Virus record (IMG/VR): IMGVR_UViG_3300008448_000485
Location: 1-27,727 of that record
Source: a virus
Taxonomy: Duplodnaviria > Caudoviricetes
Strand: one strand, 5' to 3'
Length of the DNA stretch: 27,727 nt
Made by a program: the position numbers and the translations under genes. A model generated the notes under the pieces. That model saw only the letters and a list, made by a program, of their open reading frames with translations. It was not told the origin of the DNA and made no database searches. Below, piece by piece: positions 3,536 to 27,727 of the stretch (position 1 is its first letter; each line of letters opens with the position of its first letter).

Positions 3536-4162
3536 ATGCCTGATACAGATTTGCCAGCGGGACTGTCGCGGCGGAAAGTCTTCTCGGATGAAGAGAAGCA
3601 ATTGATTGACAAGTATCGTGCGGAAAAAACGCAGATTGAAGTTATTGCGACATTGATGGGATGTGGCAAAGAACGGATTCGTCGCTACCTCAAAGACGAA
3701 AAAGGCGAGACACTAAAGGGCGATTACCACAAGACGAGGATTGCGTATCAAGCGAGAAATGTAGATATCAACTATCCTGATTTCTCAAACGCCTCTTGCA
3801 AAGAACATGATGGAAGCCTCTGGTTTCCTCGTAATCTTCCAGATATGAACGGGGCTCAGCGCGCGGCCGAATACGAACGCATCGCTCAAGCCATCAGCAT
3901 TTGCAATTCATGCCCAATCCAACTAAAGTGTCTTGAGTACGCATTGCACGCAGAACCATTTGGTATTTGGGGTGGTGCTTCAGAAGCAGAGCGGGTTTAC
4001 TTGCGTGCACGACACAACATTGAGTGCTTGCGTGAGGGCAAAGTATTCATCAACGGCATTGGTCGCAGGAATTCACAAACATCAATGATTCTTCGTGAGT
4101 CCTATGCAAAGCGATTCCTCAAATCAGAGGCAGTTCGTAAGTACATAGAGATGGCTTCGTGA
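3536..4162 (+). CDS. whiB: WhiB-family Fe-S transcription factor with N-terminal HTH-like extension
   Basis: ASCKEHDGSLWFP...ICNSCPIQLKCLEYAL...FGIWGG..E.ER = four Cys plus G[IV]WGG turn; AGGGGG SD-like before ATG 3536. Confidence 0.9.
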   Translation: MPDTDLPAGLSRRKVFSDEEKQLIDKYRAEKTQIEVIATLMGCGKERIRRYLKDEKGETLKGDYHKTRIAYQARNVDINYPDFSNASCKEHDGSLWFPRNLPDMNGAQRAAEYERIAQAISICNSCPIQLKCLEYALHAEPFGIWGGASEAERVYLRARHNIECLREGKVFINGIGRRNSQTSMILRESYAKRFLKSEAVRKYIEMAS

Positions 4163-5862
4163 ACCAAATTTCCCCCCAACTGGACAATGTCCTATCCCGC
4201 TTGCAGGGAGTAGTCCGTGTCGGTGACGGTTTCCAAGCGAAGTGCCCGTGCAGGAACGACGACGAGAACCCATCATTCTCTGTATCAGAGGGAGAGAGTG
4301 GAAAAGTCGTTATGTACTGCCACGCAGGTCGTTGCGACACAGCAAAGGCATGTGAGAGTATGGGTATCTCTATGGCAGACCTCTATCCACCTAAAAAGAA
4401 AGAGGAACTGAAACTAGTTGCCACATACAGGTATCTTGATGCGAACGGGACTCTCCTGTTTGAGAAACTCAGGTACATTAATGAGCGAGGCGAAAAGACA
4501 TTTCGTCAACGCAAACGAGATGGAAGTGGTTGGTCATACAAACTAGGTGACACCCCTCGGGTACTGTACAACTTGCCAATGGTTGTCAAAGCAGTAGCCA
4601 ACGGCGAACCGATTTGGGTAGTAGAGGGAGAAAAAGATGCAGACACTCTCATCAAAATGGGTATATGTGCTACGACTATGCCCAATGGGGCGGGTACATG
4701 GTTGCCAATACATACAGAAGTTCTCGCTGGAGCGACGGTGGACATTGTCGCCGACAAAGACGCAGCAGGAACAAAGCACGCAGAGTCAGTTTACGAAGAA
4801 CTAAAGGAGGCTGGTTGCGATGTTCAAGTATGGACTTGCACCCGTGGTAAAGACATTACGGACCATCTTGGTGCTGGTGGGTCTATCAACGATTTGGTTG
4901 CTTATCAAGCGAGTGATGTGGTTGAAGAATCACCCGAACGACTGGAAGAGGAAGCCCCGACCCCAGAGTCAGGTGCGCTTACAGCAATCACCGAGTTATT
5001 ACAGCGTTCCGACATTTCAGATACACAGAAACTTCTCAAAGCGGAATTATTAATTGCGAGGACTTCATCAACCAAGCCGATAGACACTGGTCGTCTTGTT
5101 GCGTGGAGCGAATTCGTAAATGAATCAGATGACGATTCATACGACTGGGTAATCCCAGGATTATTAGAGCGTGGGGAGCGAGTAATTGTTGTAGCAGCGG
5201 AAGGCGTTGGTAAAACAATGCTTGCGCGACAGGTGGCGATTTGTTCTGGTGCTGGTGTGCACCCGTTCACATACCAGCCGATGAAGCCAGTGACCACACT
5301 TACTGTTGACTTGGAAAACCCTGAACGAATCATTCGTAGAACTTCTCGTTCTATTTACGGGGCTGCGGCCGCTGTGTCCCACACCAAGAATCATCAGTCT
5401 CATCTACTCGTCAAACCACAAGGTCTTGACCTATTGCGCTTGGACGATAGGGCTGTTCTTGAGGAGCACTTGGAGAATATTCAACCCGACATTTTGATTA
5501 TGGGTCCTTTGTACAAGGCGTTCCTTGACCCAGGCGGTCGTACATCTGAAGCAGTAGCCATTGAAGTTGCACGGTATTTAGACACGATTCGTGATGTATT
5601 CAAGTGCGCGCTTTGGCTGGAACACCACGCTCCGCTTGGAACATCTATGACTTCACGAGAACTGCGCCCGTTCGGCTCAGCCGTGTGGTCCCGCTGGCCC
5701 GAGTTCGGTGTCTCCTTGCAACCCGACATGACTGGAATGCCATATCACTACGATGTGCGACACTTTAGAGGTGCTCGTGACGAACGCCAATGGCCTACTA
5801 GAATAAAGAGAGGGAAACGATTCCCTTTTGAGGTCGTGGAGTTTGCAAACCATTCATTATGA
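4159..5862 (+). CDS. DNA primase-helicase (Zn-binding + TOPRIM + RecA-like AAA_25-type helicase)
   Basis: CPC..D..PS...CHAG.C; VVEGEKDAD and DxD of TOPRIM; Walker A AAEGVGKT; LEHH, RPFGS; GTGA overlap with whiB. Confidence 0.92.
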   Translation: MNQISPQLDNVLSRLQGVVRVGDGFQAKCPCRNDDENPSFSVSEGESGKVVMYCHAGRCDTAKACESMGISMADLYPPKKKEELKLVATYRYLDANGTLLFEKLRYINERGEKTFRQRKRDGSGWSYKLGDTPRVLYNLPMVVKAVANGEPIWVVEGEKDADTLIKMGICATTMPNGAGTWLPIHTEVLAGATVDIVADKDAAGTKHAESVYEELKEAGCDVQVWTCTRGKDITDHLGAGGSINDLVAYQASDVVEESPERLEEEAPTPESGALTAITELLQRSDISDTQKLLKAELLIARTSSTKPIDTGRLVAWSEFVNESDDDSYDWVIPGLLERGERVIVVAAEGVGKTMLARQVAICSGAGVHPFTYQPMKPVTTLTVDLENPERIIRRTSRSIYGAAAAVSHTKNHQSHLLVKPQGLDLLRLDDRAVLEEHLENIQPDILIMGPLYKAFLDPGGRTSEAVAIEVARYLDTIRDVFKCALWLEHHAPLGTSMTSRELRPFGSAVWSRWPEFGVSLQPDMTGMPYHYDVRHFRGARDERQWPTRIKRGKRFPFEVVEFANHSL

Positions 5863-6785: not shown

Positions 6786-7043
6786 TTACTTGCGAGGGGC
6801 GAAGTAGTCCTTTTCGTCTTCATCTTCGTTATCGCGGAAGTAAAGAAAGAACGCTGTAACAGGGTTTTTATGTGAGCGAAGCCAGTAGATGCGCGCTTCT
6901 TCAATATATTTCTTGTACTTCTTCTTTGCTTCTTCCAATTCGTACTGGTCAAGTAGTGCTATGTACTTGTCAGACATGCTCTTTTTAGTCAGGGGTGGGT
7001 AGTTGGACAACTCACGGTAGTAGTCATAAATCTTTTGACTCAT
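6786..7043 (-). CDS. Hypothetical protein
   Basis: 85 aa, ATGA overlap with stop of the giant ORF. Confidence 0.7.
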   Translation of the reverse strand: MSQKIYDYYRELSNYPPLTKKSMSDKYIALLDQYELEEAKKKYKKYIEEARIYWLRSHKNPVTAFFLYFRDNEDEDEKDYFAPRK

Positions 7044-10000
7044 TTCTTCTTCCTACTTTCACCCAGTGGTGCGCCAATGTAGCGGGCCCCAGGGCCCCGT
7101 TGTTTACCGTTGGACACGAACCGCTCTTGGCTCCAGTTTGCAAGCGTACGCTGTTTGCGCGAAGCCCGTTCAGTCTTGTAACCGCCCCCTGCCTCGCGGT
7201 ACTTCTTGGCAAGGAGTTTTGCTTTGCGCGTCGTCCACTTTCCTGATGCTCCGCCTTCTGAACCATTGAGTATCTCTCGCTTCAGTCGGTTGCGAAGTAT
7301 CGGCTTGGTATGTACGCCCTTCATTTCTAACGGCTGTTCGTTGATGAATGATTTAGTTGCGTAAGATACCCACGCATGACTTACTTTAGTCGTGCGCGAC
7401 TCTCGTGTCAAGGATTTCTCTCCACGCCCGCCAGTCATCTTGCCTAGTGAGCGCATAAACGCAGCATCATTAGCAAGGTCTGGTCGGTAACGACGCATCG
7501 CAGCGACAGCCATAGCCTCTGCAACCCGTGCTTCGCTCTCAGGTGTGTTCTTGTGTGTTGCGAGACGCATCATTGACTGTATCTTGCGCAGTTGCGATGG
7601 CGGGACTTCCTCCAGACGGCGTGAAGATGAGTACGACAAGCGGTCTTCTTCTGCAAGGAACTCTGCATCATCATCATCTCCATAGAGCAATGTCCCAAAC
7701 TCATCTTGTAGGTCGCTGAGTATGCTTCGTACTCTGTCCTTGTAGTTGTCGTTATCGTAGACATCTGGCGTGTCAATGAAGTCTTGGTCTGGGTCGTCCC
7801 AATCGCCCGTGACTGCTTCTTCAATTAGTTTTGAGTACAACCAAGCGTCATCAAGACCGTCATCTAACTGCTGTTCAGCATTATCAATGACTTGACGGAG
7901 TCTGCGGCGTGCTTCTGCTGCTTGCTCAGGGGTATCAGCATTCAGGTCATTCATTTCGTCTAGAACCTTGCGTGCCGCTTCTACCTGCGCGCGCGTGTGA
8001 ATCATCTTCTTGAGTGAGTAGTTGGCAGTACGAACCATTGCATCAAGGCGTGCCTCAATGTCGTTGGCAATCTCATCTGCTTCATAGAACTTTCTGTCAA
8101 GTGCTTCGTATGGAAGACCTGCTTCTTCTGCTTCAATGGCTTGCTGTTCAAGTTCGCGCGCGCGCTTGCGAGATGCCTTGTACTCCTGAAGCAATGACTT
8201 CATGTGTTCTTGTGTCTCTAGCGGTTTGCGCCACTGCCACAAGCGAGTTCCAGGCTGTATGAAGTCAGAGTCGTTGTTTGGCGTGCGGCCCGACGCGAGG
8301 CCCCGCGGTGTTGCGTTGGCATATCGGCGAACGATTGACTGTGGGTCATCAGGAATGAGTTTGCTGTCAAGGGGCATCTCTACTTCAAGTTGCCAGTTAT
8401 TGTCCCCAGCCATATTCTCAAGCCACTTGTTGAGAATTTTTCTCCTATTGCCAATAGCCCGTGCGCGTTCAGTATCGTATTCGGTAACTTCTTGGGGTAT
8501 GGCGTCGTCATCAAAGAGGTTGAGTAGGGTGGTGAGGTTTAGTAAACCTGTTTCCTCAAGGTCGCGCATCCACCAAGTGAGTCGCGCTGCTTCTTCTTTG
8601 CTGTAAATAAGACCAGTACCTTGACCCTTGCCCTTGATGAAGTCGTTTATGTACCTTCTAAACAACGATGTCGTCTCTTGAACATCGTGTTCGCTGATGC
8701 GCGTCAAACCAGTTCGTGGGTCTGCCGAACCGAATATTGCGTTGTAACCAAGTTTCGGCCAAACAAGAACACCGTCCATAGCGGCATCTCCGTATGCTGA
8801 CTGGAATCCTGCTGCCTTACCCCATACGAACGAGTGGTATGGGATTAGCCCGAAATCCCCTTGCGACCTGTATTCTTCGTTGACTGTGAAATAGGTGAGA
8901 GTGAATCGTGGCTTATCACCATAGTCAAATGACGCTTCGCGTTCAATGTAGCCGATTGTTTTCCCTTGTTTGTCAGCAAGAATCCCGTTGATATGGAACT
9001 TGAAACGGCCAGCATCGTCCCGCTTTATCGTTACGAAGTCAAAGGTGTTGCGATACTTCTGCGGGTTTGACTCAATCTTGACATCGCTTCCTGGGATATT
9101 CGTGCCGCCCATGAACATATCGTTGATGTACTTCGTGCTACGAAGGAGGGATTCAAGTGTTTCCCTGTCTTGTGGTGTGAGGTCTACTTTTACTGGGACA
9201 GAACCCCAACCATCGTTTTCCCTGTATTTCAAGTTGTCGCGCACCCTCATTGGGTAAATTCCGTTTTCAAGCATTGACTCAATATCTTCAATAGTCATAT
9301 GAGGTACTGCGTAGTCGCGTGTGCTTTGATTGTTAGCCCAGTTGATTATGTCGTAAGCCTTATTGAACTTAGCGTTGTAATCTTTGACGGCAGCATCTAG
9401 CGTGTTGTTGAGCGCCGCCATACCTGCGTTTGCCTTTTTCCAATCGTCCCTGAATGTTTTTCCGCGCTCCACCCATGGGGTCTTGCCACCATACATTTTG
9501 CTAAAGAAGTTGCCAAGTTTCTCCATGCGCTTCTCGTGGCGCTTGACGAACTTATCTACGACCTTTGCCCTAAACGATTCCATTTCTACTGGGTCTAGCG
9601 TGTATGCGTCTTCGCCAATGAGTTCCAACACTTCTTTGACTGCGTCTGCACGCTCTTTCTCGGTCGCCTCGTCTATGCGTCGTGACGCAAGACCTTGCTG
9701 TGATGCGAGACGCCGTGAAGCAAGACCAGTCCATGGTGGTGGTGCTGGAGTCGCAGCCGAACTGTTGCGTCGCATTCGTTCTGCTTCGCGTTCACGATTA
9801 TAAGGGGTATTTCTAAGCGCAAAAAGTGGCATACCCTGTTCGTACCAAGGCGTTTTTGAGTCCATATCTGATGGATTACGCAAGAACTGGTTGTGCATAG
9901 GCCTGTCGTTTTCGTCCTTGACTGTTGCAACCAACTTCGCTGCTTCAACTGGGTTCTTGACCGTGTCCATCGCTACGACGCCCCGTCTGTTGAGCATCGT

Positions 10001-13000
10001 GATTCTTCCCACCAATGTGTCTTCGTACCCGTCATACCCAAGCAGGACTGCAAGAGTTCCTTCGTTTGCATTGAGGATTAAATCCCGTGCTTTTTTAAGG
10101 TTGGAATCTGCTTCTGGGTCTTCTCCGATTTGGTCGTTAATGCTTAGCGCGCGCGACAGAGCCATCGCTATATCATTTCTGGTTTCGTCAGAAAATAGTT
10201 CTGGTATCTCTCTGCGGATTCTCATGTTTCTGACTCGCAGGTCATCTCGGTCTAGCGGTCGCTTATATCCAATTGCTTTTTTGAATTGTTCAAGGTCAAT
10301 GCTCTGCAGGAATATGCGGGCGTCACGAAGTTCGTTCCTCTTTGCTAAGCGTGCGGAAGGAGGAATGGCTACCAAGACTGACGGAATTTTATCTGGGTCG
10401 TATGATTTGGTAACTTCGCCAGAGATAAACGCAATACCTGACTCAGCCCGTGTGTCTACCTGCATTCCCGCTCTACCAGCGAATGGCGGTGTGTCGCTAA
10501 AAAGCGTTGCCCGTGCGGCGTTCATGGCTTCTTCTGGCTTCGTGCCTATTGGAACGACATGACCGACCCTATGAGTTGGAAAACCATTTGAGTTTTGTGA
10601 TATCAGCGCAACAAATTCTTCTTCTGTTGCTAATTGCGGCGGCAAGTTGTAGCCAGTGGCTTCAAGAAGAAAAGGCAACTCTTTATCAATGTGATTAACA
10701 GGACTACGGTCACGCTGTACGGGAGAACTGTCAATTTCGTTTGCGATGTTTGCTAGTAGAGATGTGGTTTTCTCGTCAATAGGTTCGTTAATGGTATTGC
10801 CCCTAATATCAAGCGCGTGTCGCTGCCTCTGCACTGGGGTATCAACAGTTCCGTCTTTACTATTGCGCCATGCTCGTATGAAGTTGGTTGGGTCGTCAAT
10901 AATCGTTTGGTATGGCAGGTGGTCAGTAGGCGCTTCACCCAAGTCAAGTACTAGTTCTCCGCTTGCAGGGTCAAGAGCGTCGGCAAGATACACTGCTAAA
11001 TCGTTCCCACGCTCTCTATCGTCAATATCAAATGAGTTGTAGAGCGTTACGAGGCTTGCCTTATGCGGTCTGTCTTCGGCAATCTGTATCCAAGCGGCTA
11101 CACGCAGTGCTTCGTCGTCGTTCTCAATGATAGATGGCAGTCCGTCTTGGTACTTCTTTACTTGTGCCTTTAGTCGTGGCAAGAGCCCATCAACGACTGC
11201 GTTGTGTGTGCTTCCTTCTCGTACTGGGAAACCAGAACGCACCCACACGAACGGCCCCGAACTTGCGGTATGGAGGGTGACCGACATGTTCCCATGCTCT
11301 TTGCCCCATAGGAACGCATGGTTGTTGATAAGTGCCGCAATGCCTTTGCTCTTATACGCTTCTGCGATAAACAGCGTGTCGTTGAGTAGGCTAATGCTTC
11401 CAGTATCAAACCTAAGCGTTCTGCCCCAACTTTCGGTTACTTTTCTGCCTTGTGCGTCAAAAATCTCGCCACTCATATAGAGGGCTCGCCCACTCATTCC
11501 GTACCCCGAAGTGCCGTCACGAACGATTGTGTTCGCTCGTGTCGCAAAAGTATATTCTTCTCCGTCAAGCATGACTGATTTTTCGTTGAGGTACATGTCT
11601 TGCATCTCATACATGGCGTCACGCATCACCCGTAGAGCGTCAATGTCTTCTTTGGATAGTTCGGCAAGGTCCACATAGAGCGAGCCACCTACAGCGCCAG
11701 GTTCTCTGTCAAAAACTCTTGGTTCTAATTCGCCTCGGTCAATGCGGTCAAGTATCGCATCTATCATTTCTGCTGTAATGCGTGGTTCTGGGGCAATTTT
11801 TGACCCACGACCTGGAATCATGCGACCAGGATTATCAGGGTCTGGCACCAACCTTGGCTGTTTGGCTGAATCTGCCAAGTATGCTTCCTTATTGGTTTTT
11901 GCCAACTTAGACAAGACGCTGTCTATCTCCTCACGCATTGCGTCGTACTTGCGAAACGCCTCTACGCCCTCTTTCCACGGTTTTTCATCTCCATAGATAC
12001 CGTAAATAACTTCGGCAACACGAGAGAGACGCTTATTTATGCGCTCTTGTACGAGTAGTTGAGTGCGCTCAATAATGGAGCGTGCTTCCTCTTTGTCTGC
12101 TTCTGTACTTGGATAGAACAGTCGGCGCAATATGTTTTTTAGCGGTTCTTTTTCGGCTGGAACAATACTCTCTAAGCGTCGCCCTCTGTCTCTGTCCATA
12201 GCAGTTGCTTCGTCATCTGTGTAACGACGACTAGCAAGCCCACGGGCACGCCAAGTGCGAGGGTCGTCGCTTCCGTCGGCTACTGGTCGCATAGCGTCGT
12301 GTCGTGGGTCGTATGTTTCGGTGTGTTCTAGCGCGTAGAACAGAGTCCCGTCTCTTTCTTCCACATTGGCGACCCTGAATGTTCCCTGCGTTAGCCAGTT
12401 GTCGTCATCTGTCTCTAGCGCCCGTGCGCCCGCCCGTAGCGTGAGGTTCACTGAATAATCCATATTTGGCTTGCTTGTGAACGCTGTTATGGGTAATGGA
12501 AACTCGTCGTCTACTGCTAACGCTTGCTCAAACTGTGCTTGGAGCATTGGTACGGCACGATAAAGGTTCTCGGTCGTTGGCTCTGAACGCTGTATGCCTA
12601 TGGCAATATTTACTGCGTCATTCATAGCACGCTCTACACGGTCACGGTCATCTTTAGGTAGGTTGGCAACATTACCTGTGATAACGCCTCGCAACATCTC
12701 TATATCGTTGGGTGTTTCGTTTCCGTGTAGTTTAAAGTCGTCAAGCGGGAAACCTAGCGTTACTGCTGATAGCGCCCGTGTCATATCGGAGTGCGTATCG
12801 TCTGTGACGAAACGACTAGCGCCGAGTTTCGCACGACCATCTAATCTTGTGTCGCCTATGAGGTGAACGCTTGGCGTAGCACGGTCATAGAAACGGTGGT
12901 CGCCTACGGTGAGTAGACGCTCACGACCACGACCGTCGTAGATACTCGTAGGGTTCGGTAGGTCGTGTAGTCGGTCGCCGACATCTACGCCATTCGTCGT

Positions 13001-14398
13001 TGGCAGAATGTTCTGGTTCTGTCGTGGCTTGCGCTCTAGCGCTAGTCCGTTAGGCAGACGGTCTTGCGGTGGTACTAGATATTGCGAGTTGTAAGCCCGT
13101 GGGTCTGTTTTTCGGTTATTGCGACGCTTTTTTTCTAGTCCTAATAGTTCGGCAAAGTAGTCGTAAGTAAAGTCATTGACTAGTTCGGTAATACTGTCTT
13201 GGTCTGGTCGTACTACGGCGGAATACGCTTCGGCGAACATTTCCCAAGGGGCATCTGTTGCGTAATGACTGTCTACCCAAAGATAACTGCCGTCACGGGC
13301 GTCATTGCGTGCGCCTCTACTCCATTTCGGAGTTTCCTTTTCTGCGAACACTAAAAACCCAAGCAAGTCCTCTGAACTTTCTGCGCTTCTCGGATTATCT
13401 TCGTTGTCGTCAAACATAGGGTCGTGTCGCTTGACATCTGCGATTTCTCTTACCCGTGACGCTTGGAAACGCCTTTTCATTAGTTCGTCAATATAGTGAC
13501 CGTATTCGTGGCGTAGGCTTCCCTCATTAGTTGGGTCTGCGTGACTTCTGCCGTAAATACCTTCTATCGTGTAAAACTCTGCGAAACCATTGTCGCCTGC
13601 CCTGTCTAAACTCTCTGGCGTCATAGTGATAATGTTCTGGTGCGTTGAGTAAAACATCCAGTTGTCGGTGGTGTTGTGACCGTACTTATTCATTACTACT
13701 TGCGGGTGACCAAAGTTCTGAACGACCCAGTAATGAAGTGGGCTTGTCTCTAACGACTTCTGTACCAACGCTCTAACCCGTGCGATAGTTTCTGGCTCAA
13801 AGTCTGGCTCAATATATTGCGCCTGAGTTATTTCGCCTCGTTCTAACTTGCGCTTGTTCAGGAAGTCCATCATTTCCATATCCCGAAACTGGCTATCAGC
13901 CAACTCTTTAGCGGCTTCGTATGCGTCGTCACTTGCGTATGCTGAACGCTGTCCTGCTGCGAACAATATGTAAGCGTCTCTTGCTTCGTCCATACTTGAC
14001 GGCACTACTAAGCGTGCTATTTCCTCTGGCGTTCTACCGTGTAGCCACTTAGGGTGTCCTATCGGCTTGTCACCTTTACGCTTGCGTACCTTAGCCTTAG
14101 TCTTACTGATTGCCCTTCTGCTTACAAGTCCGCTAGGGCTACCCGTGACGCCTTCGTCGCTACTCGCTGTAGGCGTAGTAGTAGGCAACTTAGGTGCGCT
14201 AGGTGTGGCAGGGCGCTCAAAGGGCGTACTGTCTTGTACGAAACCGTCGCCATCTCCGTCCTCTGCGTTAGGGTCAAAGCGTTCGTTCATACCGCCTAGC
14301 GTGCCACGACCACCACGACCACCACCACGACCAATAGAACCGCCAAGTTTCCTTAGCGCACGATTACCTGCCTTAGCGTCAAACTCAAACTGCGTCAT
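7040..14398 (-). CDS. Giant multidomain (polyvalent) protein: zincin metallopeptidase, two ART-like domains, two GNAT modules, DUF2786-like and DUF5872-like C-terminus
   Basis: 2452-aa uninterrupted ORF; H297EYGH + E386MFAE; LYR614...FTS642; AYKSKGIA/GPFVWVRSGF and EEYRSQG/GVLVWPKLGY; GYNLPP...LGYDGY...LNR; LRKIQSMMRLA...EAR; HTKPILRNRLK...GKWTTRKAKLLAKKYREAGGGY. Confidence 0.85.
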   Translation of the reverse strand: MTQFEFDAKAGNRALRKLGGSIGRGGGRGGRGTLGGMNERFDPNAEDGDGDGFVQDSTPFERPATPSAPKLPTTTPTASSDEGVTGSPSGLVSRRAISKTKAKVRKRKGDKPIGHPKWLHGRTPEEIARLVVPSSMDEARDAYILFAAGQRSAYASDDAYEAAKELADSQFRDMEMMDFLNKRKLERGEITQAQYIEPDFEPETIARVRALVQKSLETSPLHYWVVQNFGHPQVVMNKYGHNTTDNWMFYSTHQNIITMTPESLDRAGDNGFAEFYTIEGIYGRSHADPTNEGSLRHEYGHYIDELMKRRFQASRVREIADVKRHDPMFDDNEDNPRSAESSEDLLGFLVFAEKETPKWSRGARNDARDGSYLWVDSHYATDAPWEMFAEAYSAVVRPDQDSITELVNDFTYDYFAELLGLEKKRRNNRKTDPRAYNSQYLVPPQDRLPNGLALERKPRQNQNILPTTNGVDVGDRLHDLPNPTSIYDGRGRERLLTVGDHRFYDRATPSVHLIGDTRLDGRAKLGASRFVTDDTHSDMTRALSAVTLGFPLDDFKLHGNETPNDIEMLRGVITGNVANLPKDDRDRVERAMNDAVNIAIGIQRSEPTTENLYRAVPMLQAQFEQALAVDDEFPLPITAFTSKPNMDYSVNLTLRAGARALETDDDNWLTQGTFRVANVEERDGTLFYALEHTETYDPRHDAMRPVADGSDDPRTWRARGLASRRYTDDEATAMDRDRGRRLESIVPAEKEPLKNILRRLFYPSTEADKEEARSIIERTQLLVQERINKRLSRVAEVIYGIYGDEKPWKEGVEAFRKYDAMREEIDSVLSKLAKTNKEAYLADSAKQPRLVPDPDNPGRMIPGRGSKIAPEPRITAEMIDAILDRIDRGELEPRVFDREPGAVGGSLYVDLAELSKEDIDALRVMRDAMYEMQDMYLNEKSVMLDGEEYTFATRANTIVRDGTSGYGMSGRALYMSGEIFDAQGRKVTESWGRTLRFDTGSISLLNDTLFIAEAYKSKGIAALINNHAFLWGKEHGNMSVTLHTASSGPFVWVRSGFPVREGSTHNAVVDGLLPRLKAQVKKYQDGLPSIIENDDEALRVAAWIQIAEDRPHKASLVTLYNSFDIDDRERGNDLAVYLADALDPASGELVLDLGEAPTDHLPYQTIIDDPTNFIRAWRNSKDGTVDTPVQRQRHALDIRGNTINEPIDEKTTSLLANIANEIDSSPVQRDRSPVNHIDKELPFLLEATGYNLPPQLATEEEFVALISQNSNGFPTHRVGHVVPIGTKPEEAMNAARATLFSDTPPFAGRAGMQVDTRAESGIAFISGEVTKSYDPDKIPSVLVAIPPSARLAKRNELRDARIFLQSIDLEQFKKAIGYKRPLDRDDLRVRNMRIRREIPELFSDETRNDIAMALSRALSINDQIGEDPEADSNLKKARDLILNANEGTLAVLLGYDGYEDTLVGRITMLNRRGVVAMDTVKNPVEAAKLVATVKDENDRPMHNQFLRNPSDMDSKTPWYEQGMPLFALRNTPYNREREAERMRRNSSAATPAPPPWTGLASRRLASQQGLASRRIDEATEKERADAVKEVLELIGEDAYTLDPVEMESFRAKVVDKFVKRHEKRMEKLGNFFSKMYGGKTPWVERGKTFRDDWKKANAGMAALNNTLDAAVKDYNAKFNKAYDIINWANNQSTRDYAVPHMTIEDIESMLENGIYPMRVRDNLKYRENDGWGSVPVKVDLTPQDRETLESLLRSTKYINDMFMGGTNIPGSDVKIESNPQKYRNTFDFVTIKRDDAGRFKFHINGILADKQGKTIGYIEREASFDYGDKPRFTLTYFTVNEEYRSQGDFGLIPYHSFVWGKAAGFQSAYGDAAMDGVLVWPKLGYNAIFGSADPRTGLTRISEHDVQETTSLFRRYINDFIKGKGQGTGLIYSKEEAARLTWWMRDLEETGLLNLTTLLNLFDDDAIPQEVTEYDTERARAIGNRRKILNKWLENMAGDNNWQLEVEMPLDSKLIPDDPQSIVRRYANATPRGLASGRTPNNDSDFIQPGTRLWQWRKPLETQEHMKSLLQEYKASRKRARELEQQAIEAEEAGLPYEALDRKFYEADEIANDIEARLDAMVRTANYSLKKMIHTRAQVEAARKVLDEMNDLNADTPEQAAEARRRLRQVIDNAEQQLDDGLDDAWLYSKLIEEAVTGDWDDPDQDFIDTPDVYDNDNYKDRVRSILSDLQDEFGTLLYGDDDDAEFLAEEDRLSYSSSRRLEEVPPSQLRKIQSMMRLATHKNTPESEARVAEAMAVAAMRRYRPDLANDAAFMRSLGKMTGGRGEKSLTRESRTTKVSHAWVSYATKSFINEQPLEMKGVHTKPILRNRLKREILNGSEGGASGKWTTRKAKLLAKKYREAGGGYKTERASRKQRTLANWSQERFVSNGKQRGPGARYIGAPLGESRKKK

Positions 14399-14572
14399 AT
14401 ATCCCTAACGGCTGAACGGATTATCGGTGGTAACTAGATTATCTCATAGGGATACTGCGCTATTACACACTATGAGTTACCCGTAAGACTACCCGTGACG
14501 CTTGCGACGCTAGTGAAACAATAAGCGTGCGACATACTAAGACACTATGTTGTGTGCCTATGCCTATGGTGT

Positions 14573-14602
14573 GTGTACCTACTAGGCGTGTACCTACTAG
14601 GC
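14573..14602. repeat. Perfect tandem 15-bp direct repeat GTGTACCTACTAGGC x2
   Basis: Copies at 14573-14587 and 14588-14602. Confidence 0.9.
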
Positions 14603-14634
14603 AGTGTGTATCGTGGGGTCATACACACTGCCTA
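14598..14634 (-). terminator. 14-bp perfect hairpin after the 54-aa ORF (terminator or processing site; no U-tract)
   Basis: TAGGCAGTGTGTAT / ATACACACTGCCTA with 9-nt loop, 10 nt past stop at 14645. Confidence 0.55.
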
Positions 14635-14644
14635 TGTGGTATCG

Positions 14645-14809
14645 CTATGCGGTTGCTCTTGCTAGTTCGTTCTCTAAGAACTCAACTCGCCTAGCAAGGT
14701 AAGCGTGTTCGTTGCGTAGTTCGTTGTAAGAAACCGTTAGGTTCGTTGCGTGCTGTACTAGTTCATCTTTTTTCATCTGGCTAAGCATTGAGGTAATGGA
14801 CTGTGACAC
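14645..14809 (-). CDS. Small coiled-coil protein, 54 aa (not in ORF track)
   Basis: GTG start, AAGGAG SD 7 nt upstream, MSQSITSMLSQMKKDELVQHATNLTVSYNELRNEHAYLARRVEFLENELARATA; near-consensus promoter upstream. Confidence 0.8.
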   Translation of the reverse strand: MSQSITSMLSQMKKDELVQHATNLTVSYNELRNEHAYLARRVEFLENELARATA

Positions 14810-14845
14810 TGTGGTTCTCCTTGTGGTTGTTCCTTATAGGTGGTA

Positions 14846-14874
14846 ACACTATCGTCTAGGCGTGTATGTGTCAA
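14846..14874 (-). promoter_or_regulatory. Housekeeping-sigma promoter TTGACA-17-TAGTGT
   Basis: -35 TTGACA (14874-14869), 17-nt spacer, -10 TAGTGT (14851-14846). Confidence 0.8.
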
Positions 14875-14990
14875 GTATTTAGACGCTTATTTGTGTGACA
14901 TTTGTGTAACTTTTCTATGCGATTTCTGTGATATATCTACGCTGTGTTAGGCGTGCCTTACAAGCGTTAGTCTGACCTTACAATTCGGTG

Positions 14991-15223: not shown

Positions 15224-15982
15224 CTAAAGCACGGTGGTGATGATATGGCCCTCTATTTGGTCCGCAGGTATCGGATAGTCCACCACTAGTGCGCGTTGTA
15301 TCCATCGGTCGGTTCCGTCGTATCTGGCTGCAAAGGGTCGTCTGCCATGCACTCTGATTCGGTTGTTGAGCACCAGCAGGTCCCCGTACTCAAGCACAAT
15401 GGATTCAATAGAGTTGTTGACCGCTTCTCGCAGTAGTTCTAGGGCATGGCTCGCTTCTTCATTTTTCCCCGACATGACCGTATCGTCGTATACGAGTTCC
15501 AAGCCTTTGCCATTGTCTTGCAGTACTGACATAGTGAACTTTGCATCTGTTGCACCATTTTCTTTAAATGATGGGTCTATGCCTGTTTCAAACCATGGCT
15601 GTTTTAGTATCTCTATAGTTTCAGGGGATAGTTTTCCCATGATTTCGTTAAGAGATGCATATGTAGTATGCGCCGCGCTGTCACCTCTCAAACACAGCAG
15701 GAGAAGGTATGAGGGCTTGTACGGGTGGAATGCCGTCTCTGTATGCAGAGCCAGTTCAGCCTTAGATGATGAACTGATTTGCTCGGTCTCATTCTTTTTG
15801 ACTGGCAGCAGGTTCTGAATCAAAGCACCCTTTTGCTCTTGGATGTATCCGATTGGATACCCAAAGTCGCGAGCATATTTGAGCAGCACTTGAGTTGCTT
15901 GCATGTCTGGTATGCCGTAAGGGGACGCAGGGGTAGGAGGAATGACGCCGATGTCTAGACCCCTGAATAAAATAAGACTCAT
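15224..15982 (-). CDS. Fe(II)/2-oxoglutarate dioxygenase, clavaminate synthase/AsnO/VioC-like (TauD/TfdA superfamily)
   Basis: LHTETAFHPYKPSYLLLLCLR (H-x-E), GDLLVLNNRIRVHGR, RYDGTDRWIQR. Confidence 0.9.
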   Translation of the reverse strand: MSLILFRGLDIGVIPPTPASPYGIPDMQATQVLLKYARDFGYPIGYIQEQKGALIQNLLPVKKNETEQISSSSKAELALHTETAFHPYKPSYLLLLCLRGDSAAHTTYASLNEIMGKLSPETIEILKQPWFETGIDPSFKENGATDAKFTMSVLQDNGKGLELVYDDTVMSGKNEEASHALELLREAVNNSIESIVLEYGDLLVLNNRIRVHGRRPFAARYDGTDRWIQRALVVDYPIPADQIEGHIITTVL

Positions 15983-16005: not shown

Positions 16006-16419
16006 CTAAGATTCAAACACATCTGCGAGCATGCTTCCTTCTGCTCGCAAATTGAATCCGCTTGTTCGGTTGTAGTGGAGCCATTGAATGTCGTCAATAT
16101 TCAAGTCATTGACAATCTTGAGTATGGTCAACTCAACATCCATGCTATTAGATGTATAAACATCTATCCGTACATGTGCTGGGACTGGTTCGTCAAAGAT
16201 ATGGATGGAGATGTGCGAGGTATCCAGCATGAGCGAGCCGATGAGCCCTCGCGCGCCCGCGCGCTTGCTGTAGCGCACGCGCGTACCGCCGACACGGTGA
16301 ACGCCGATGGTTTCGGCAATACCCTTGAGGAACTTGCGCAGTTGCCACTTACTGGTGATAGGAAATGCTGTCTCGGCATTAATCATCAAATGGTTATGAG
16401 AGTACTTCTTCTTTGCCAT
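16006..16419 (-). CDS. speD: S-adenosylmethionine decarboxylase (SpeD)-like pyruvoyl proenzyme, variant
   Basis: HNHLMINAE, GLIGSLMLDTSHISIHIFDE, IDVYTS; start 16419 or 16449 uncertain. Confidence 0.8.
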   Translation of the reverse strand: MAKKKYSHNHLMINAETAFPITSKWQLRKFLKGIAETIGVHRVGGTRVRYSKRAGARGLIGSLMLDTSHISIHIFDEPVPAHVRIDVYTSNSMDVELTILKIVNDLNIDDIQWLHYNRTSGFNLRAEGSMLADVFES

Positions 16420-16657
16420 ATGGATTTTCGGCTTTCTTGATGCAGTCATTCAGGGTTGATTCCGCCCAATAAACAAACTCTTTGAGGTCGGTTCCTGGGA
16501 ACTGCAAGCGTAGTACATGCTGAGCAACCATGCGGTTATTAATCGCATCACCTCTGTAGATGTCAACATCTGTGCCGCCAGCCCACCGAGCAGACCAAAT
16601 ATCCTTGCCATCACCAAAGATATCTATGGATACTTCGTGGGTGTCTATAACTTTCAT
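16394..16657 (-). CDS. Hypothetical protein
   Basis: 87 aa, AGGAG SD upstream. Confidence 0.7.
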   Translation of the reverse strand: MKVIDTHEVSIDIFGDGKDIWSARWAGGTDVDIYRGDAINNRMVAQHVLRLQFPGTDLKEFVYWAESTLNDCIKKAENPYGKEEVLS

Positions 16658-17683: not shown

Positions 17684-17685
17684 TT

Positions 17686-23018: not shown

Positions 23019-23093
23019 TGCCCTCGGGTGGAATTGAACCACCGTGTACCCCTACGGTTTCCACACCTTATAAGAGTGAGCCGATACGAGGGC
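23019..23093 (-). tRNA. Non-canonical tRNA-Ile (anticodon UAU) lacking a normal D-arm, with expanded variable region
   Basis: GCCCTCG/CGAGGGC acceptor stem + A discriminator; GGTGG-TTCAATT-CCACC T-arm; CACT-CTTATAA-GGTG anticodon arm; only 8 nt between acceptor and anticodon stems; CCA not encoded. Confidence 0.8.
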
Positions 23094-23106
23094 GTATACT
23101 ATTGAC

Positions 23107-23418
23107 ATGACCTTTTACCGACAGGATAGTTTTTCGCAGTCATTTGTCGGTGGGAACATACCACTCTCAAGAGCCGACAGGCAACCATGCCCAGTGTGCG
23201 GGCACCCAACTGGTGATTGCGTTGGTGAATCAAAGAAGCCAGAGCATATTGCAGGCTTCAATCAAATTGAATCAATGAAATTAAATCAAACGGTTTTAGT
23301 TGAAGAAGATATTTGGGAAGAAATAATGTTGACACCTTTCACAAAGACAAAAATTCTTGTGTATCCAAAAGGAAAACAGATTCCAATCGCCGAAGCGGAA
23401 AAATTAGGATTAATTTAG
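23107..23418 (+). CDS. Hypothetical phage protein with CPVCGHPTGDC motif
   Basis: C-x2-C-x-H-x4-C; leaderless TATACT 6 nt upstream. Confidence 0.75.
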   Translation: MTFYRQDSFSQSFVGGNIPLSRADRQPCPVCGHPTGDCVGESKKPEHIAGFNQIESMKLNQTVLVEEDIWEEIMLTPFTKTKILVYPKGKQIPIAEAEKLGLI

Positions 23419-23482
23419 ACCCTTTCAGTATTTTCGGGTAGTGTAAACTCGTTAACCACTCGCTATTAGATAAGGGCCTATC

Positions 23483-25402
23483 ATGCTTGACCAGTCATTT
23501 GTAGATTCGTATTCCCTAAAATCAGCCCCATGGGGCTTTAACGGCCTTGGCGAGATTGTTTTCCTGCGTACCTACAGTCGCAAAAAGGAAAACGGAGACA
23601 CCGAACTTTGGCATGAAACCCTGCAGCGCGTAATCAATGGCGCAATTGAAATTGGCGCTCAGTTAACCGATGAAGAAGCACAAAAACTATTTGACCATTG
23701 CTTTAACTTGCGGGCATCTTTTTCTGGTCGCTCACTCTGGCAACTTGGAACTCCGCTTGTAAAGAAACTCAACGGAACTTCCCTAAACAACTGCTACTTC
23801 ACGAACATTGAAAAGATTGAAGACTTTGAACTCCTGTTTGAGTACCTGATGCTCGGCGGTGGAGTTGGTTTCTCGGTAGAGCGTTCAAAAATCCATGATT
23901 TGCCAAAGGTTAAAACTGGAGTGACAATTACCCACGAGCGTTCAAATGATGCCGACATAATTGTTCCAGATTCGCGACAGGGATGGAAGCGCCTGCTGCA
24001 TGCCGTACTGAAGTCGTACTTCCATACTGGGAAATCTTTCTCCTACTCAACAATTTTGATTCGCGAATACGGTGCACCATTGAATACATTCGGTGGTACG
24101 GCTTCTGGCCCTGGTGCATTGATTGACGGAATTAAAGATATTTGCGGAGTGATGGATAATCGCGTTGGAAAGAAACTGCGCTCAATTGATGTTCTTGATA
24201 TTTGCAACATCATCGGCCGAATCGTCGTATCTGGTTCTTCGCGTCGTTCTGCGCAAATCGCAATGGGCGACCCAGATGATGTTCTTTTCCTTCGCGCAAA
24301 GAACTGGGGTTCTGGAAATGTTCCAGCATGGCGAGCGAACTCCAACAACAGCATCTATGCCGACTACTACGAAGAGATTCAACCAGAACTCTGGAAGGGC
24401 TACGACGGAACTGGTGAGCCTTACGGCTTACTGAATCGTCGCCTCGCTCGTCGTTATGGACGCGCTGGAGAAGTGAATGTTGACAACTCTATTGAGGGAT
24501 TCAATCCGTGTGCAGAAATCGCTCTTGCTGATGGAGAGTCGTGCAACTTGGCAACACTGTTTTTGCCAAACATTGAGTCTTACGAGCAGTTTGTTGAAAT
24601 CTCAACACTTCTCTACAAGGTCCAAAAGCAAATCACCCGCATGGAATATCCATACGAAAAGACGACTTCAATTGTGCACAAGAATGCTCGCCTTGGACAG
24701 TCTGTAACTGGAATCCTGCAGTGTGACCCACAGAAACTTGAATGGCTCAGCCCTGGATATGTCGCGCTAAAAGAGTTTGACAAAAACTTCTCTGCTGCGA
24801 ACAGCATTCCAGTATCTGTCCGCTTAACAACGGTTCAGCCATCTGGAACATTGTCGCTACTCCCAGGAGTGACACCAGGAATCCACCCAGCGTACGCTCG
24901 CTTCTATACTCGCCGAGTTCGCTTTGGCTCGTCTGACCCGCTTGTAGACGCTTGTCGCAAGCGTGGGTACAAAGTTCAGTGGGATATGGGCCTTGACGGC
25001 AGAGAGGACCACACGCGCTATGTCGTTGACTTCCCATGTGAGTCGCCAGAGGGCTCAGTCCTTGCAGCCAGCATGACCGCCATTGAGCAACTTGAGTGGG
25101 TGAAGAAGATGCAAACCGAATGGGCAGATAACGCCGTTTCGGTCACTGTCTACTACCGCAAGGAAGAACTTCCAGCGATTCAAGATTGGCTTTCAAAGAA
25201 CTACGACAAGAGCGTCAAGTCCGTGTCGTTCCTATTGCATAGCGACCACAACTTCGTGCTTCCTCCATACGAGGAAATCACAGAGGCGGAATACCGTAAG
25301 GCAATTGCAAAGATTGACACATCAATTCCACTTGTACAGCGCTCATTTGACGGCTTGATTGAGATGGACGATTGTGCAACTGGAGCATGCCCGATAAAGT
25401 AG
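23483..25402 (+). CDS. nrdJ: Class II (adenosylcobalamin-dependent) ribonucleotide reductase
   Basis: RTYSR, LNNC, LMLGGGVGFS, RRSAQI, NPCAE, CNL, VQPSGT, C-terminal CATGACPIK; no small subunit nearby. Confidence 0.93.
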   Translation: MLDQSFVDSYSLKSAPWGFNGLGEIVFLRTYSRKKENGDTELWHETLQRVINGAIEIGAQLTDEEAQKLFDHCFNLRASFSGRSLWQLGTPLVKKLNGTSLNNCYFTNIEKIEDFELLFEYLMLGGGVGFSVERSKIHDLPKVKTGVTITHERSNDADIIVPDSRQGWKRLLHAVLKSYFHTGKSFSYSTILIREYGAPLNTFGGTASGPGALIDGIKDICGVMDNRVGKKLRSIDVLDICNIIGRIVVSGSSRRSAQIAMGDPDDVLFLRAKNWGSGNVPAWRANSNNSIYADYYEEIQPELWKGYDGTGEPYGLLNRRLARRYGRAGEVNVDNSIEGFNPCAEIALADGESCNLATLFLPNIESYEQFVEISTLLYKVQKQITRMEYPYEKTTSIVHKNARLGQSVTGILQCDPQKLEWLSPGYVALKEFDKNFSAANSIPVSVRLTTVQPSGTLSLLPGVTPGIHPAYARFYTRRVRFGSSDPLVDACRKRGYKVQWDMGLDGREDHTRYVVDFPCESPEGSVLAASMTAIEQLEWVKKMQTEWADNAVSVTVYYRKEELPAIQDWLSKNYDKSVKSVSFLLHSDHNFVLPPYEEITEAEYRKAIAKIDTSIPLVQRSFDGLIEMDDCATGACPIK

Positions 25403-25406
25403 TCGC

Positions 25407-25688
25407 ATGACGAAAAAACTTATTGACCTATATCCAGTCGTAATACGACAAGCGCGGTATGGGGGCATATACGAGGGCGCAGGGTGGATTGCATTCCCTG
25501 AATGCGACGAATTCACAGAAGCAATGAATGATTACTTCTATGGCGACGACTGCGATGCGGTTGACCTGTTTACTGACGAGTACAAGAAGACGGTTGGTCT
25601 TGGGATAAGTCCAGACCATGCGTATGCGGACTTGTGTTATAAGAACGGCATACCGATAGACCTTCTTGAGGACTGGTATCCGCTATAG
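25407..25688 (+). CDS. Hypothetical protein
   Basis: 93 aa right after nrdJ; YPVVIRQARYGGIYEGAGWIAF. Confidence 0.7.
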   Translation: MTKKLIDLYPVVIRQARYGGIYEGAGWIAFPECDEFTEAMNDYFYGDDCDAVDLFTDEYKKTVGLGISPDHAYADLCYKNGIPIDLLEDWYPL

Positions 25689-25764
25689 AGATTGTCTCCA
25701 TCTAATTTAGAGATACTTCAATGAGTTTGTATCTCTGTAAAAGATTGCTGGCATAATTCATGCC

Positions 25765-25911
25765 ATGCTTATTTTTGTTCTTTTCTCATTTGTCGCAATT
25801 ATCTCTCTTCATCTTCTTGTTGTGTCGTCAATTGACGACTACGACAACTACGGGAACAAGCACGCCGCCATGGAGTGGAGCGAGTTTGAGAAGAAGTATT
25901 CTGCGCGCTAG
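25765..25911 (+). CDS. Small single-pass membrane protein, 48 aa (not in ORF track)
   Basis: MLIFVLFSFVAIISLHLLVVSSIDDYDNYGNKHAAMEWSEFEKKYSAR; CATAAT 7 nt upstream; fills gap and converges on ferredoxin stop. Confidence 0.65.
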   Translation: MLIFVLFSFVAIISLHLLVVSSIDDYDNYGNKHAAMEWSEFEKKYSAR

Positions 25912-25915
25912 TCCT

Positions 25916-26161
25916 TCATTGTTCAATAAAAATACATTCGCCAGGGCATTCTTCGGCTGACTCAATAACATCTTCAAGCCTGTCGTCTGCGAAGGAAGCC
26001 ATTCCAGCCGCTCCTTCTGGGTTCCCCACAGCGGCCGCATAAATCTTGTCCCCTTCTTTTACATACGCAAGACCGTCTGGCATCATATGAAAAACATCTG
26101 GGGCTATCTCTGCGCATAGTCCATCTCCAGTGCATAGGTCTTGGTCAATCCAGACTCTCAT
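25916..26161 (-). CDS. Single-cluster ferredoxin (C-x2-D-x2-C...CP)
   Basis: MRVWIDQDLCTGDGLCAEIAPDVF...AEECPGECI; start 26161 via TAATG coupling. Confidence 0.92.
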   Translation of the reverse strand: MRVWIDQDLCTGDGLCAEIAPDVFHMMPDGLAYVKEGDKIYAAAVGNPEGAAGMASFADDRLEDVIESAEECPGECIFIEQ

Positions 26162-26610
26162 TATTTTTCCTTTGTAATTGGTCCACCAGCAACCCATGCT
26201 CGGCATGTTCTTTTTGAAGCACACTTAAAGTCAAATGCCTCACAATATCCAAGTTGACCAGCAGCATCAATTGCTTCCCATTCATCCTGTCTTTCGCCAC
26301 CAGTAACACCATCGTTAATGCAGGATTTCATTTTGGGGGTTTGAATGAATACCGAACAATTTCCACAACGCTGTTTTTTGGCACTTGCTACATCAACATC
26401 CCACTCATCTGCGAGTTTCTGCCAGTAGTCGGCATTTGGTTCGGCTGGATTGAGTGGACCATACATTGCTGTCTTGATTGCTTTGCCACGATTGCGAAGA
26501 TTGACTGCAATATCCTGAGTTGCCTTGGGGCATGAACCGCCCTCTTCGTCAGCCTTTGTTTCAAAACGAAAACCAAGAACCTTGCCAGTGTATTCACCCC
26601 AGGTTGTCAT
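26161..26610 (-). CDS. Cys-rich phage protein with HiPIP-like Cys spacing
   Basis: RCGNCSVF...GYCEAFDFKCASKRTCRAW. Confidence 0.65.
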   Translation of the reverse strand: MTTWGEYTGKVLGFRFETKADEEGGSCPKATQDIAVNLRNRGKAIKTAMYGPLNPAEPNADYWQKLADEWDVDVASAKKQRCGNCSVFIQTPKMKSCINDGVTGGERQDEWEAIDAAGQLGYCEAFDFKCASKRTCRAWVAGGPITKEK

Positions 26611-26900
26611 TATTTCCCTTCAAGATGGTCGGGAATTCCGTTTCCATCTTTATCCTCGTCTGAGTTTCTTCCAGTTGAAATCATAAGACCAGCAAGCGTA
26701 CCAGTAATGAAGGTTGCAACGGAAGAAAGGACGCTAAAGAACATCTTGTCGTTTTCTGCTTGAGCACCTATTGGTTGTGTGACGAATACGAGAGCGTAGA
26801 GGACGCCAACTGTTGTTATACACAAAACTCCAGCGAGTACGCACCCAACAACAAACTTGAGACGAGCATCAAGTTCTGCTGGTGTAAGTCTGTTTTTCAT
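26610..26900 (-). CDS. Two-TM membrane protein
   Basis: MKNRLTPAELDARLKFVVG..., two hydrophobic segments, DKDGNGIPD tail; ATGA coupling at 26900. Confidence 0.75.
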   Translation of the reverse strand: MKNRLTPAELDARLKFVVGCVLAGVLCITTVGVLYALVFVTQPIGAQAENDKMFFSVLSSVATFITGTLAGLMISTGRNSDEDKDGNGIPDHLEGK

Positions 26901-27133
26901 GGCGCCACTGTCTCCTCTACTGGAACCGTTTCTACGGTTGTTTCTGTTGGGTCCCAACCAAGCAGCGTTTTTGTGCAGTTTCCATCTACTTCGCATATTG
27001 GTGGCTCACATTCCTTTGTTCCCCAATTTTCTGGGTCTTGGCATGAGTAACGATACTTTCCGTCATAACCACAGGCTGAAATTGCAATCAGCATGATTGG
27101 AAGAAGTTTGATTAATCGTGTTGACTTGTGCAT
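26897..27133 (-). CDS. Small lipoprotein
   Basis: MHKSTRLIKLLPIMLIAISA-C lipobox; RYSCQDPENWGTKECEPPICEVDGNC. Confidence 0.7.
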   Translation of the reverse strand: MHKSTRLIKLLPIMLIAISACGYDGKYRYSCQDPENWGTKECEPPICEVDGNCTKTLLGWDPTETTVETVPVEETVAP

Positions 27134-27237
27134 GCACTGGCACCCATTAATTCGGCGCAAGGACAATCGCCCACGCACCAAGTTTCACAACTGCAATGTA
27201 CACATTGGCACTCAGACTTTTCGTGGCTACCGAACAT
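27112..27237 (-). CDS. Cys-rich metallothionein-like peptide, 41 aa
   Basis: MFGSHEKSECQCVHCSCETWCVGDCPCAELMGASACTSQHD: 8 Cys, 3 His, three CxC; fills gap between flanking genes. Confidence 0.45.
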   Translation of the reverse strand: MFGSHEKSECQCVHCSCETWCVGDCPCAELMGASACTSQHD

Positions 27238-27496
27238 CAGTCGCCTTTTCTTTTGACGGCTTCCTGTCAACCTTATTGAATACATCGTTGATTTCTGAAG
27301 TGGAAAGTTTTCCATCTTCAAGGAATGCGCGCGAGAGGCCTTCAATCACTACCGCAACCCCTCCAATTCCAGCCATGAAGACAGCCTTCAGTACTGGAAC
27401 ACCAGCGATAGTTCCTGCACCGATAACGCCAAGACCAGATGCGGCGAAAGTAGCAAGAATTCTAAGTGAGACATTGACTAGCAATTCTTTTTTCAT
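27227..27496 (-). CDS. Small membrane protein (holin-like)
   Basis: Two hydrophobic Gly/Ala-rich segments and charged C-terminus; GATAAT 6 nt before ATG 27496. Confidence 0.6.
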   Translation of the reverse strand: MKKELLVNVSLRILATFAASGLGVIGAGTIAGVPVLKAVFMAGIGGVAVVIEGLSRAFLEDGKLSTSEINDVFNKVDRKPSKEKATDVR

Positions 27497-27518
27497 ACAA
27501 CCATTATCCCACAAACAC

Positions 27519-27555
27519 AAAAGCCGCCACCGAAATTAATCGGCAGCGGCTTTTG
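27519..27555 (-). terminator. Intrinsic terminator
   Basis: AAAAGCCGC...GCGGCTTTT inverted repeat just past stop at 27574. Confidence 0.8.
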
Positions 27556-27573
27556 AACCCGAGGAGGATTTAA

Positions 27574-27727
27574 TTAGGCTTGTACGCCACCTGCATGGTC
27601 GCCACGAAGTACAGCAATGTCGTACTCGTTCTGGCCAGTCTGGTCTGCGCTCTGGTCTACAACCAGTGTTACTACAAGGTTTGCACCAGCGGTGCTAGAA
27701 CCAACTGCAGTCACATCAACTTCAACA
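27574..27727 (-). CDS. 3' end of probable virion structural protein (truncated by window edge)
   Basis: ...VEVDVTAVGSSTAGANLVVTLVVDQSADQTGQNEYDIAVLRGDHAGGVQA*; followed by strong terminator; function inferred from pattern only. Confidence 0.55.
   Translation of the reverse strand, partial: VEVDVTAVGSSTAGANLVVTLVVDQSADQTGQNEYDIAVLRGDHAGGVQA

Follow-up and report, generated by a model that had tools for sequence, protein, structure and literature searches.

We predict that a short motif of the form G-x-x-S, found repeatedly between the domains of a 2452-amino-acid (aa) phage protein, is a processing signal that is common to predicted head cargo and the tape measure protein (TMP) and is spelled differently from phage to phage. 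It is likely, from comparison of related genomes, that some protease cuts the linkers in which the motif lies. The chances seem about even that the enzyme is a second phage-encoded zincin, in the first place one that we designate Z1, which would free the effectors and split the TMP.

The window (the whole stretch of 27,727 nucleotides that was analysed) is a fragment of a phage genome with genes for WhiB, SSB, a primase-helicase and a class II ribonucleotide reductase. WhiB is a sign of actinobacterial hosts (PMC6802176). Freshwater metagenomes from several studies carry the window's phage, and none of the listed datasets that carry it is an RNA dataset. Its relatives have genomes of ~150 kb (from completeness estimates) and encode an HK97-type capsid, a portal and an S78 protease, along with a tail sheath identified by reading of ORFs. 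The right end of the window (23090..27727) overlaps contig G011 with 96% identity over 4.6 kb, and G011 carries a head module, either from this phage or from a very near relative. In the relatives, the primase-helicase gene (4159..5862, plus strand) is a conserved neighbour of the gene for the 2452-aa protein. Upstream of the latter are ~570 bp without a long ORF (14399-14966) that contain short repeated units (e.g., gcctagtaggtacac, present twice). Also encoded are a histone-deacetylase-like protein (1307-2233), a TauD-like dioxygenase (15224-15982), an S-adenosylmethionine decarboxylase (16006-16449) and a ferredoxin (25916-26224).

The 2452-aa protein (7040..14398, minus strand, as are all of its features given below) is a predicted head cargo protein for which 14 homologs were found, and its ORF is free of indels in contigs from three other runs. 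It combines several unlike effector domains in one chain (zincin, ADP-ribosyltransferase (ART) fold and GNAT) and is thus a polyvalent protein. Near the N-terminus is the sequence F-D-A-K↓A-G (14366..14383), a predicted Lys-type prohead-protease site at K9 (the arrow marks the bond) that resembles sites before the cargo leaders of G005-G019. It is followed by a near-invariant leader motif, DPxxxDGDGDGxVQDxTPxERP (aa 42-63, 14210..14275), which is common to cargo proteins and is the predicted capsid-targeting part.

The preliminary description divided the rest of the chain into an HExxH peptidase, an ART-like module, a GNAT module with a second ART-like module, a second GNAT module, and a coiled coil with DUF2786 and DUF5872. 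Most of this division holds. The zincin (MPTase-type) module (aa ~200-430, 13109..13801, with HEYGH at aa 297-301) matches Pfam Peptidase_Mx only with an E-value of 0.012, and is recognized by residues H297, E298, H301, E386 and E390 (the HExxH and downstream Glu of MPTases), which are invariant in 10 of 10 homologous sequences. Two other runs contain a divergent allele of its C-terminal half (13031-13406), with many differences over ~380 bp. The module at aa ~470-700 (12299..12991) has an ART fold (Foldseek E-value of 2.6e-5 to 6drh). GNAT module 2 (aa ~1575-2032, 8303..9676) was identified by structure comparison of aa ~1754-2023 (VIA Z 9.0, rmsd 4.2, 145 aligned), and GNAT module 1 (aa ~726-1160, 10919..12223) by its model and by paralogy with module 2 (25% identity, E-value 1e-10). 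The second ART-like module (ART-like2, aa ~1165-1557, 9728..10906) is a lead from the Atlas (0.85-0.87) to a possible ART-PolyVal-like domain. The helical or coiled-coil module that follows GNAT module 2 (aa ~2039-2315, 7454..8284) ends in a DUF2786-like hairpin in the model; the Pfam match is below the cut-off in this protein and above it in the homologs P0006, P0008 and P0009. The C-terminal basic domain (7040..7423) is DUF5872-like and lacks a direct match to that family, but aa 2360-2408 match phrog_17747. Three predicted Lys sites (K2328, K2349 and K2360) precede this domain, which is a separate gene in L008 and L011.

Copies of GL[AV]S[RG]R had been reported at five places in the chain, with a degenerate sixth, and all are there: GLVSRR at aa 90 (14114..14131), GLASRR at aa 720 (12224..12241), GLASRR twice at aa 1558 and 1569 (9677..9727), GLASGR at aa 2033 (8285..8302) and the degenerate GLALER at aa 451 (13031..13048). 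From composition, 0.0014 matches to this pattern are expected, compared with the five seen, and in none of 1000 shuffles of the protein did any exact hexamer occur three times. AlphaFold2 models of aa 90-1199 (mean pLDDT 70) and aa 1150-2340 (mean pLDDT 54) place all six sites in inter-domain coil, with pLDDT of 20-42 in the surrounding blocks (20-25 for the pair at aa 1558 and 1569, 23-24 at aa 2033, and likewise low at aa 451). The GNAT module 2 fold ends ten residues ahead of the copy at aa 2033. Proline-rich linkers were also borne out, each of the six sites being preceded by 3-5 Pro within 25 residues, compared with a mean of 1.3. Cutting at the motifs would give pieces of ~360 (zincin), 270 (ART), 840 (GNAT module 1 with ART-like2), 460 (GNAT module 2) and 300 residues.

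The motif persists in homologs, as a processing signal requires according to the preliminary description, although not every copy does. The copy at aa 720 is unchanged in all 10 sequences compared, the most distant with ~30% identity, and a loose form of the motif occurs within ~30 aa of the aa 451 place in 20 of 35 homologs, compared with a background of 19%. At aa 2033, L002 and L003 have GLTGRR. The copy at aa 90 is absent from P0003, P0004 and P0005, which are 73-91% identical, the one at aa 1558 is absent from P0003 and P0004, and P0006 and P0008-P0010 have a motif ahead of ART-like2 where the window protein has none. Single copies have thus been gained and lost among close relatives, which counts against the processing reading. 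Distant homologs with other architectures have variants (GLRSRS, SLRSSG, GARSRS and GLTGA), in some cases with one 4-mer in up to 10-12 copies per protein, and homologs exchange domains including HTH, RNase T, Zeta toxin, NUDIX and extra zincins. Similarity to cultured phage records is confined to the C-terminal 50 aa of the 2452-aa protein.

Motif copies are enriched at the borders of the exchanged modules. Among 54 cargo proteins, a motif is found within 25 aa of 33% of 479 alignment starts compared with 15% at random, and of 31% of 695 alignment ends compared with 14% (the maxima in 200 random draws were 19% for starts and 18% for ends). The copy at aa 90 and the GMSSRR of a module encoded by another gene (G013 66329) align with each other from their starts.

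We identified 17 further copies in four head-region genes of G011; its portal, capsid and a 1272-aa cargo protein lack the motif. Counting matches to a fixed pattern in 12 contigs of the relatives (freshwater actinobacterial myophages) and the window, we found 61 compared with 4.3 expected in protease tails (14-fold), 64 compared with 8.1 in leader-bearing cargo and 42 compared with 5.6 in Z1 proteins (each ~8-fold), 19 compared with 3.9 in the TMP (5-fold), none in capsids and portals (1.0 and 0.6 expected) and 33 compared with 24.8 in other proteins (1.3-fold), where the pattern derives from motifs that had already been observed and the class of other proteins takes in some cargo, including the 2452-aa ORF.

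The spelling is a property of the phage. Spellings include GLASRR, TLRSSG, KLSSG, GFAS and GSKSTT, and within a phage the cargo genes and the TMP linker agree. Across different genes (38 genes in 10 phages), spellings from the same phage match at 2.36 of 5 positions compared with 1.53 between phages, a value reached in 0 of 2000 label permutations, although modules shared by duplication inflate the likeness among cargo genes of one phage. The spelling of G026, GSKS[ST]T, is wholly unlike the others and is the best natural variant for comparing specificity, with ~30 copies distributed over the TMP and six cargo genes; its pattern matches 28 times in G026 and 0-2 times in each of 24 other sets.

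The motif could in principle have arisen as a side effect of module duplication or mark a site of DNA recombination. The copies at aa 720 and 1569 do begin two paralogous modules, and over 12 sets (6894 codon pairs) aligned motif residues use the same codon at a rate of 0.30 compared with 0.25 expected, with a raised rate in G015, G016, G022 and G007 (0.29-0.43 compared with 0.21-0.34). However, there is no codon excess in seven sets, namely the window, G005, G011, G014, G017, G023 and G027. Codons had been noted to differ among the five window copies, and the same-codon rate there is indeed 0.238 compared with 0.230 expected, with both Ser codon families in use (AGY in two copies and TCN in three). 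In addition, the TMP shares no module with the cargo yet has the cargo spelling of its phage. This explanation is largely refuted, and we give it only a minimal probability. From the genome-wide distribution, the spelling of each phage, the agreement of the TMP and the codon rates, we conclude that the motif is a protein-level signal read by something that each phage encodes or meets. As the signal is genome-wide and present in the tape measure, the reader must act in trans.

Motif sites occupy two constant positions in the TMP: 24 of 28 distinct TMPs have one in a central linker, and 17 of 28 have one at aa 35-55. The central site is after N-terminal hydrophobic stretches and before an M15-like end (a weak match, Pfam E-value of 0.054). 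When spelling profiles were built from cargo only, the phage to which each of seven TMPs belongs ranked 1, 1, 1, 1, 2, 2 and 5 of 10, and the G026 TMP has GSKS[ST]T at aa 616 and 672. A matrix of TMPs by spelling patterns, in which each phage's pattern matches its own TMP in 9 of 9 cases, was not relied on because the patterns were written after the TMP sites were seen and because the broad G011 pattern also matches six other TMPs, including that of G025, which lacks the motif; the cargo-only profiles and the G026 spelling were used instead.

Four phages (G008, G020, G021 and G025) lack the motif, and their TMPs are short (1133-1255 aa). No alternative linker-like 4-mer common to at least three of their large proteins stood out in a search that covered the 2454-aa protein of G008 separately and left out part of it and of the neighbours in G021. 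Three of the four form one clade (support 0.73; G020 was left out of the tree), and probably all four do.

HK97-type proteases cleave after Lys, and the capsids have sites of this kind: all 15 have [EQ]FK↓[STA]L and 13 of 15 have VK↓D, while none has the G-x-x-S motif. Lys sites like these are found on either side of the S78 domain and, as at K9, ahead of the basic stretch and DxDxDG motif of cargo leaders. The DxDxDG leader occurs on most cargo, in motif-positive and motif-free phages alike, and also on the prohead-protease fusion and other head-region genes. From this shared leader, we predict indirectly that the virion contains the cargo and delivers it along with the DNA. Because the capsids lack the motif and have Lys sites, the head protease seems to read a code of its own, and packaging is more likely a function of the leader. 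Some giant cargo lacks G-x-x-S, namely that of the four motif-free phages and P0034 (4528 aa; seven GNAT-like modules, neither a zincin nor a linker motif that recurs), so the motif would be dispensable for packaging if those proteins are packaged. Accordingly, G-x-x-S was rejected as a capsid-targeting sequence, being internal, repeated and absent from that giant cargo. It was also rejected as a prohead-protease site of the T4/SPN3US type, given its absence from capsids and its presence outside the head, in the TMPs.

A more elaborate version of the latter idea gives the HK97-type prohead protease, beside its Lys sites, another specificity for x-x-Ser. The enzyme shares the head with the cargo, and assemblin-fold proteases read short P3-x-P1 motifs, for example A-X-E in SPN3US (PMC10052503). 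This is improbable given the capsids, and given that the active-site segments of the protease are the same across spellings and in motif-free phages, which keep the S78 domain. G005 and G007, which spell differently, are 95% identical in this domain. Tails, moreover, assemble apart from heads. Hence, of the roles that the preliminary description had offered for the motif, a packaging signal and a site for the head protease are disfavoured, whereas the more general one, a processing signal that releases separate effectors, fits the comparative evidence (conservation, position at module borders and a protein-level signal), with cleavage itself a prediction. In motif-bearing phages, the S78 protease has an effector tail of 500-3000 aa (e.g., G005 29412-33089, G009 74948-83812 and G017 16602-26099), or, in G014 and G026, the gene that follows encodes the tail separately; in motif-free phages, the protease is ~550-720 aa long.

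Z1 is our candidate for the reader. The protein has the leader first and then a single zincin, at aa ~552-921 in G011, and its gene is single-copy at a fixed place in the head region, present in 16 of 16 motif-bearing contigs that cover that place and in 0 of 4 motif-free phages (15 of the 16 profile matches are training-set sequences). Z1 appears to be a fast-evolving zincin: HExxH is kept in 28 of 28 distinct domains, and H, E, H, G and E are invariant at ~20% identity. Within the covered module, G008 lacks two of the head and tail genes of G005, one for the Z1 giant and one for an adjacent 153-aa protein that resembles a leader domain. L277, L290 and L291 have a Z1-like leader gene without HExxH, and they lack the motif as well. 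The link between Z1 and the motif nevertheless rests on about one event, as the motif-free phages that can be placed form one clade, and these phages also lack the window-type zincin and a metallophosphoesterase. Spelling distance correlates with the distances of Z1, portal, terminase and prohead protease to a similar degree (Mantel rho of 0.30-0.36, Z1 no better than the others), and partial Mantel correlations are 0.17 for Z1 (p of 0.08) and 0.21 for the prohead protease (p of 0.09). A separate round of such tests gave weaker correlations, and neither round singled out one reader. Comparison of the Z1 profile with solved structures gave none below an E-value of 0.5, the Atlas gave only unnamed clusters, and Z1 and window-type zincin profiles have only the HExxH helix in common (probability 17%). 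The matrix-metalloprotease-like consensus is P-x-x↓L-x-small. It was considered for the motif and rejected, as Pro is at P3 in only 6 of 155 sites and the G026 spelling has Ser at the hydrophobic P1' place. We know of no zincin consensus that the motif fits, and the G026 spelling has no hydrophobic residue.

The zincin within the 2452-aa protein, or its orthologue beside the primase, might instead cut both in cis and in trans, acting on cargo and TMP. Its catalytic residues are invariant, most motif-bearing phages encode its type and all four motif-free phages lack it, and it fits the MPTase type as described in PMC5512222 (His at strand 2 and Asp three residues after HExxH). We regard this as quite unlikely, since zincins of this type occur in up to four HExxH copies per protein and in varying places, like shuffled cargo. 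Furthermore, the match in G026, the phage whose spelling is strongest, is weak (iE 2e-4, in a contig 63% complete), and G008 has zincin-bearing cargo yet no motif.

A soluble enzyme, either a phage metallopeptidase linked to MoxR or a host protease after entry, would have access to tail and head proteins both, and processing of virions by MoxR-vWA peptidases has been proposed (PMC7824862). A MoxR-like ATPase adjoining an HExxH metallopeptidase (e.g., L005 1452-3691) is encoded by motif-bearing and motif-free phages. A soluble reader is very improbable, in that the MoxR-linked peptidase is retained in the motif-free G020, G021 and G025, cuts made before packaging would detach modules from the leader, and a host enzyme fits phage-specific spellings poorly unless the hosts differ.

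It is also conceivable, although unlikely, that the signal is left uncut, with its Ser modified (e.g., phosphorylated) or with the motif docking on a phage protein that guides cargo and TMP through ejection. Ser is the only near-invariant residue of the motif and is followed by S, T, G or R, as such a role would predict. A calcineurin-like phosphoesterase is encoded in G005, G022, G023, G013, G027 and G028 and was not found in the four motif-free phages, and a binder acting in trans would likewise yield phage-specific spellings. On the other hand, the motif is at the first residues of shuffled modules, which is the pattern expected of cut sites, some copies have Gly in place of Ser (in L002, L003 and P0014), and giant cargo exists without the motif. 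Kinase-like genes of the head region, recognized by eye, are retained in motif-free phages. Look-alikes of HipA/PI4K-type kinases are at G005 44835-46901 and at the C-terminus of G005 46898-53518, with no Pfam match.

Returning to cleavage by Z1, we envisage that the leader would carry the polyprotein into the prohead, where the Lys-specific prohead protease would then take off the leader. A zincin, probably Z1, would next cut the G-x-x-S linkers, in the head or on ejection, and these cuts would release ART, GNAT, zincin and other modules of ~270-840 residues. In the TMP, a cut would separate the hydrophobic half from the end that resembles a wall hydrolase. Heads and tails assemble separately, so an enzyme packaged in the head would have access to the TMP only once the two are joined or while ejection takes place. 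Thus, there may be two proteolytic codes, one read by the Lys-specific prohead protease (shell and leaders) and the other, in a spelling private to the phage, by a dedicated fast-evolving zincin at ejection; for this combined scheme we put the chances at a little under even.

In eukaryotic viruses, a single viral protease cuts polyproteins at a short recurring motif and so yields several mature proteins. The products of those polyproteins are core structural or replication proteins, whereas the present case involves a tailed phage with several polyproteins, effectors and predicted cleavage. Phage polyvalent proteins, like the 2452-aa protein, are giant and combine zincin, ART and GNAT domains in shuffled order, and self-processing by their MPTases has been proposed (Iyer et al., 2017, PMC5512222). 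The text examined of that study includes no recognition motif, whereas the window group has a motif at module borders in up to six genes per phage and in the TMP. The phage-varying spelling here points to a single-copy zincin acting in trans. Prohead maturation in T4 and SPN3US, as described in the sections considered of PMC7411985 and PMC10052503, resembles our Lys sites and leader in that a short motif is read in trans in many head proteins and an N-terminal targeting propeptide is removed. However, the motif there is also in capsid and portal, and the removal of N-terminal propeptides accounts for 13 of 14 SPN3US sites, whereas G-x-x-S has internal positions, is missing from portal and capsid and occurs in a protein of the tail. 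The T5 TMP is cleaved between a hydrophobic stretch and a muralytic domain (PMC10038345), and in T5 and lambda the placement is similar to that of the central TMP site. The T5 site is single and after Arg near the C-terminus, and the text examined of that source mentions no signal shared with head cargo. No description of such a motif was found in the published literature searched (mostly open literature, as main texts without supplements).

The release of effectors by a zincin, proposed in 2017, can thereby be assigned particular sites and a candidate enzyme, along with variants of specificity that occur in nature (GLASRR compared with GSKSTT). One signal joins head cargo and the tail TMP, which bears on the passage of 200-450 kDa proteins through the tail tube. 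From the motif, the limits of hundreds of effector domains that lack annotation can also be drawn in this widespread lake-phage group. If the reading with two codes is true, any domain flanked by the spelling would be an injected effector, and the motif would predict the whole injected arsenal from sequence.

Directly before Z1 is a PepSY-like gene (G005 33227-34582; Pfam E-value of 1.4e-4, below the cut-off), which is kept in phages without Z1. PepSY domains are known as metalloprotease inhibitors.
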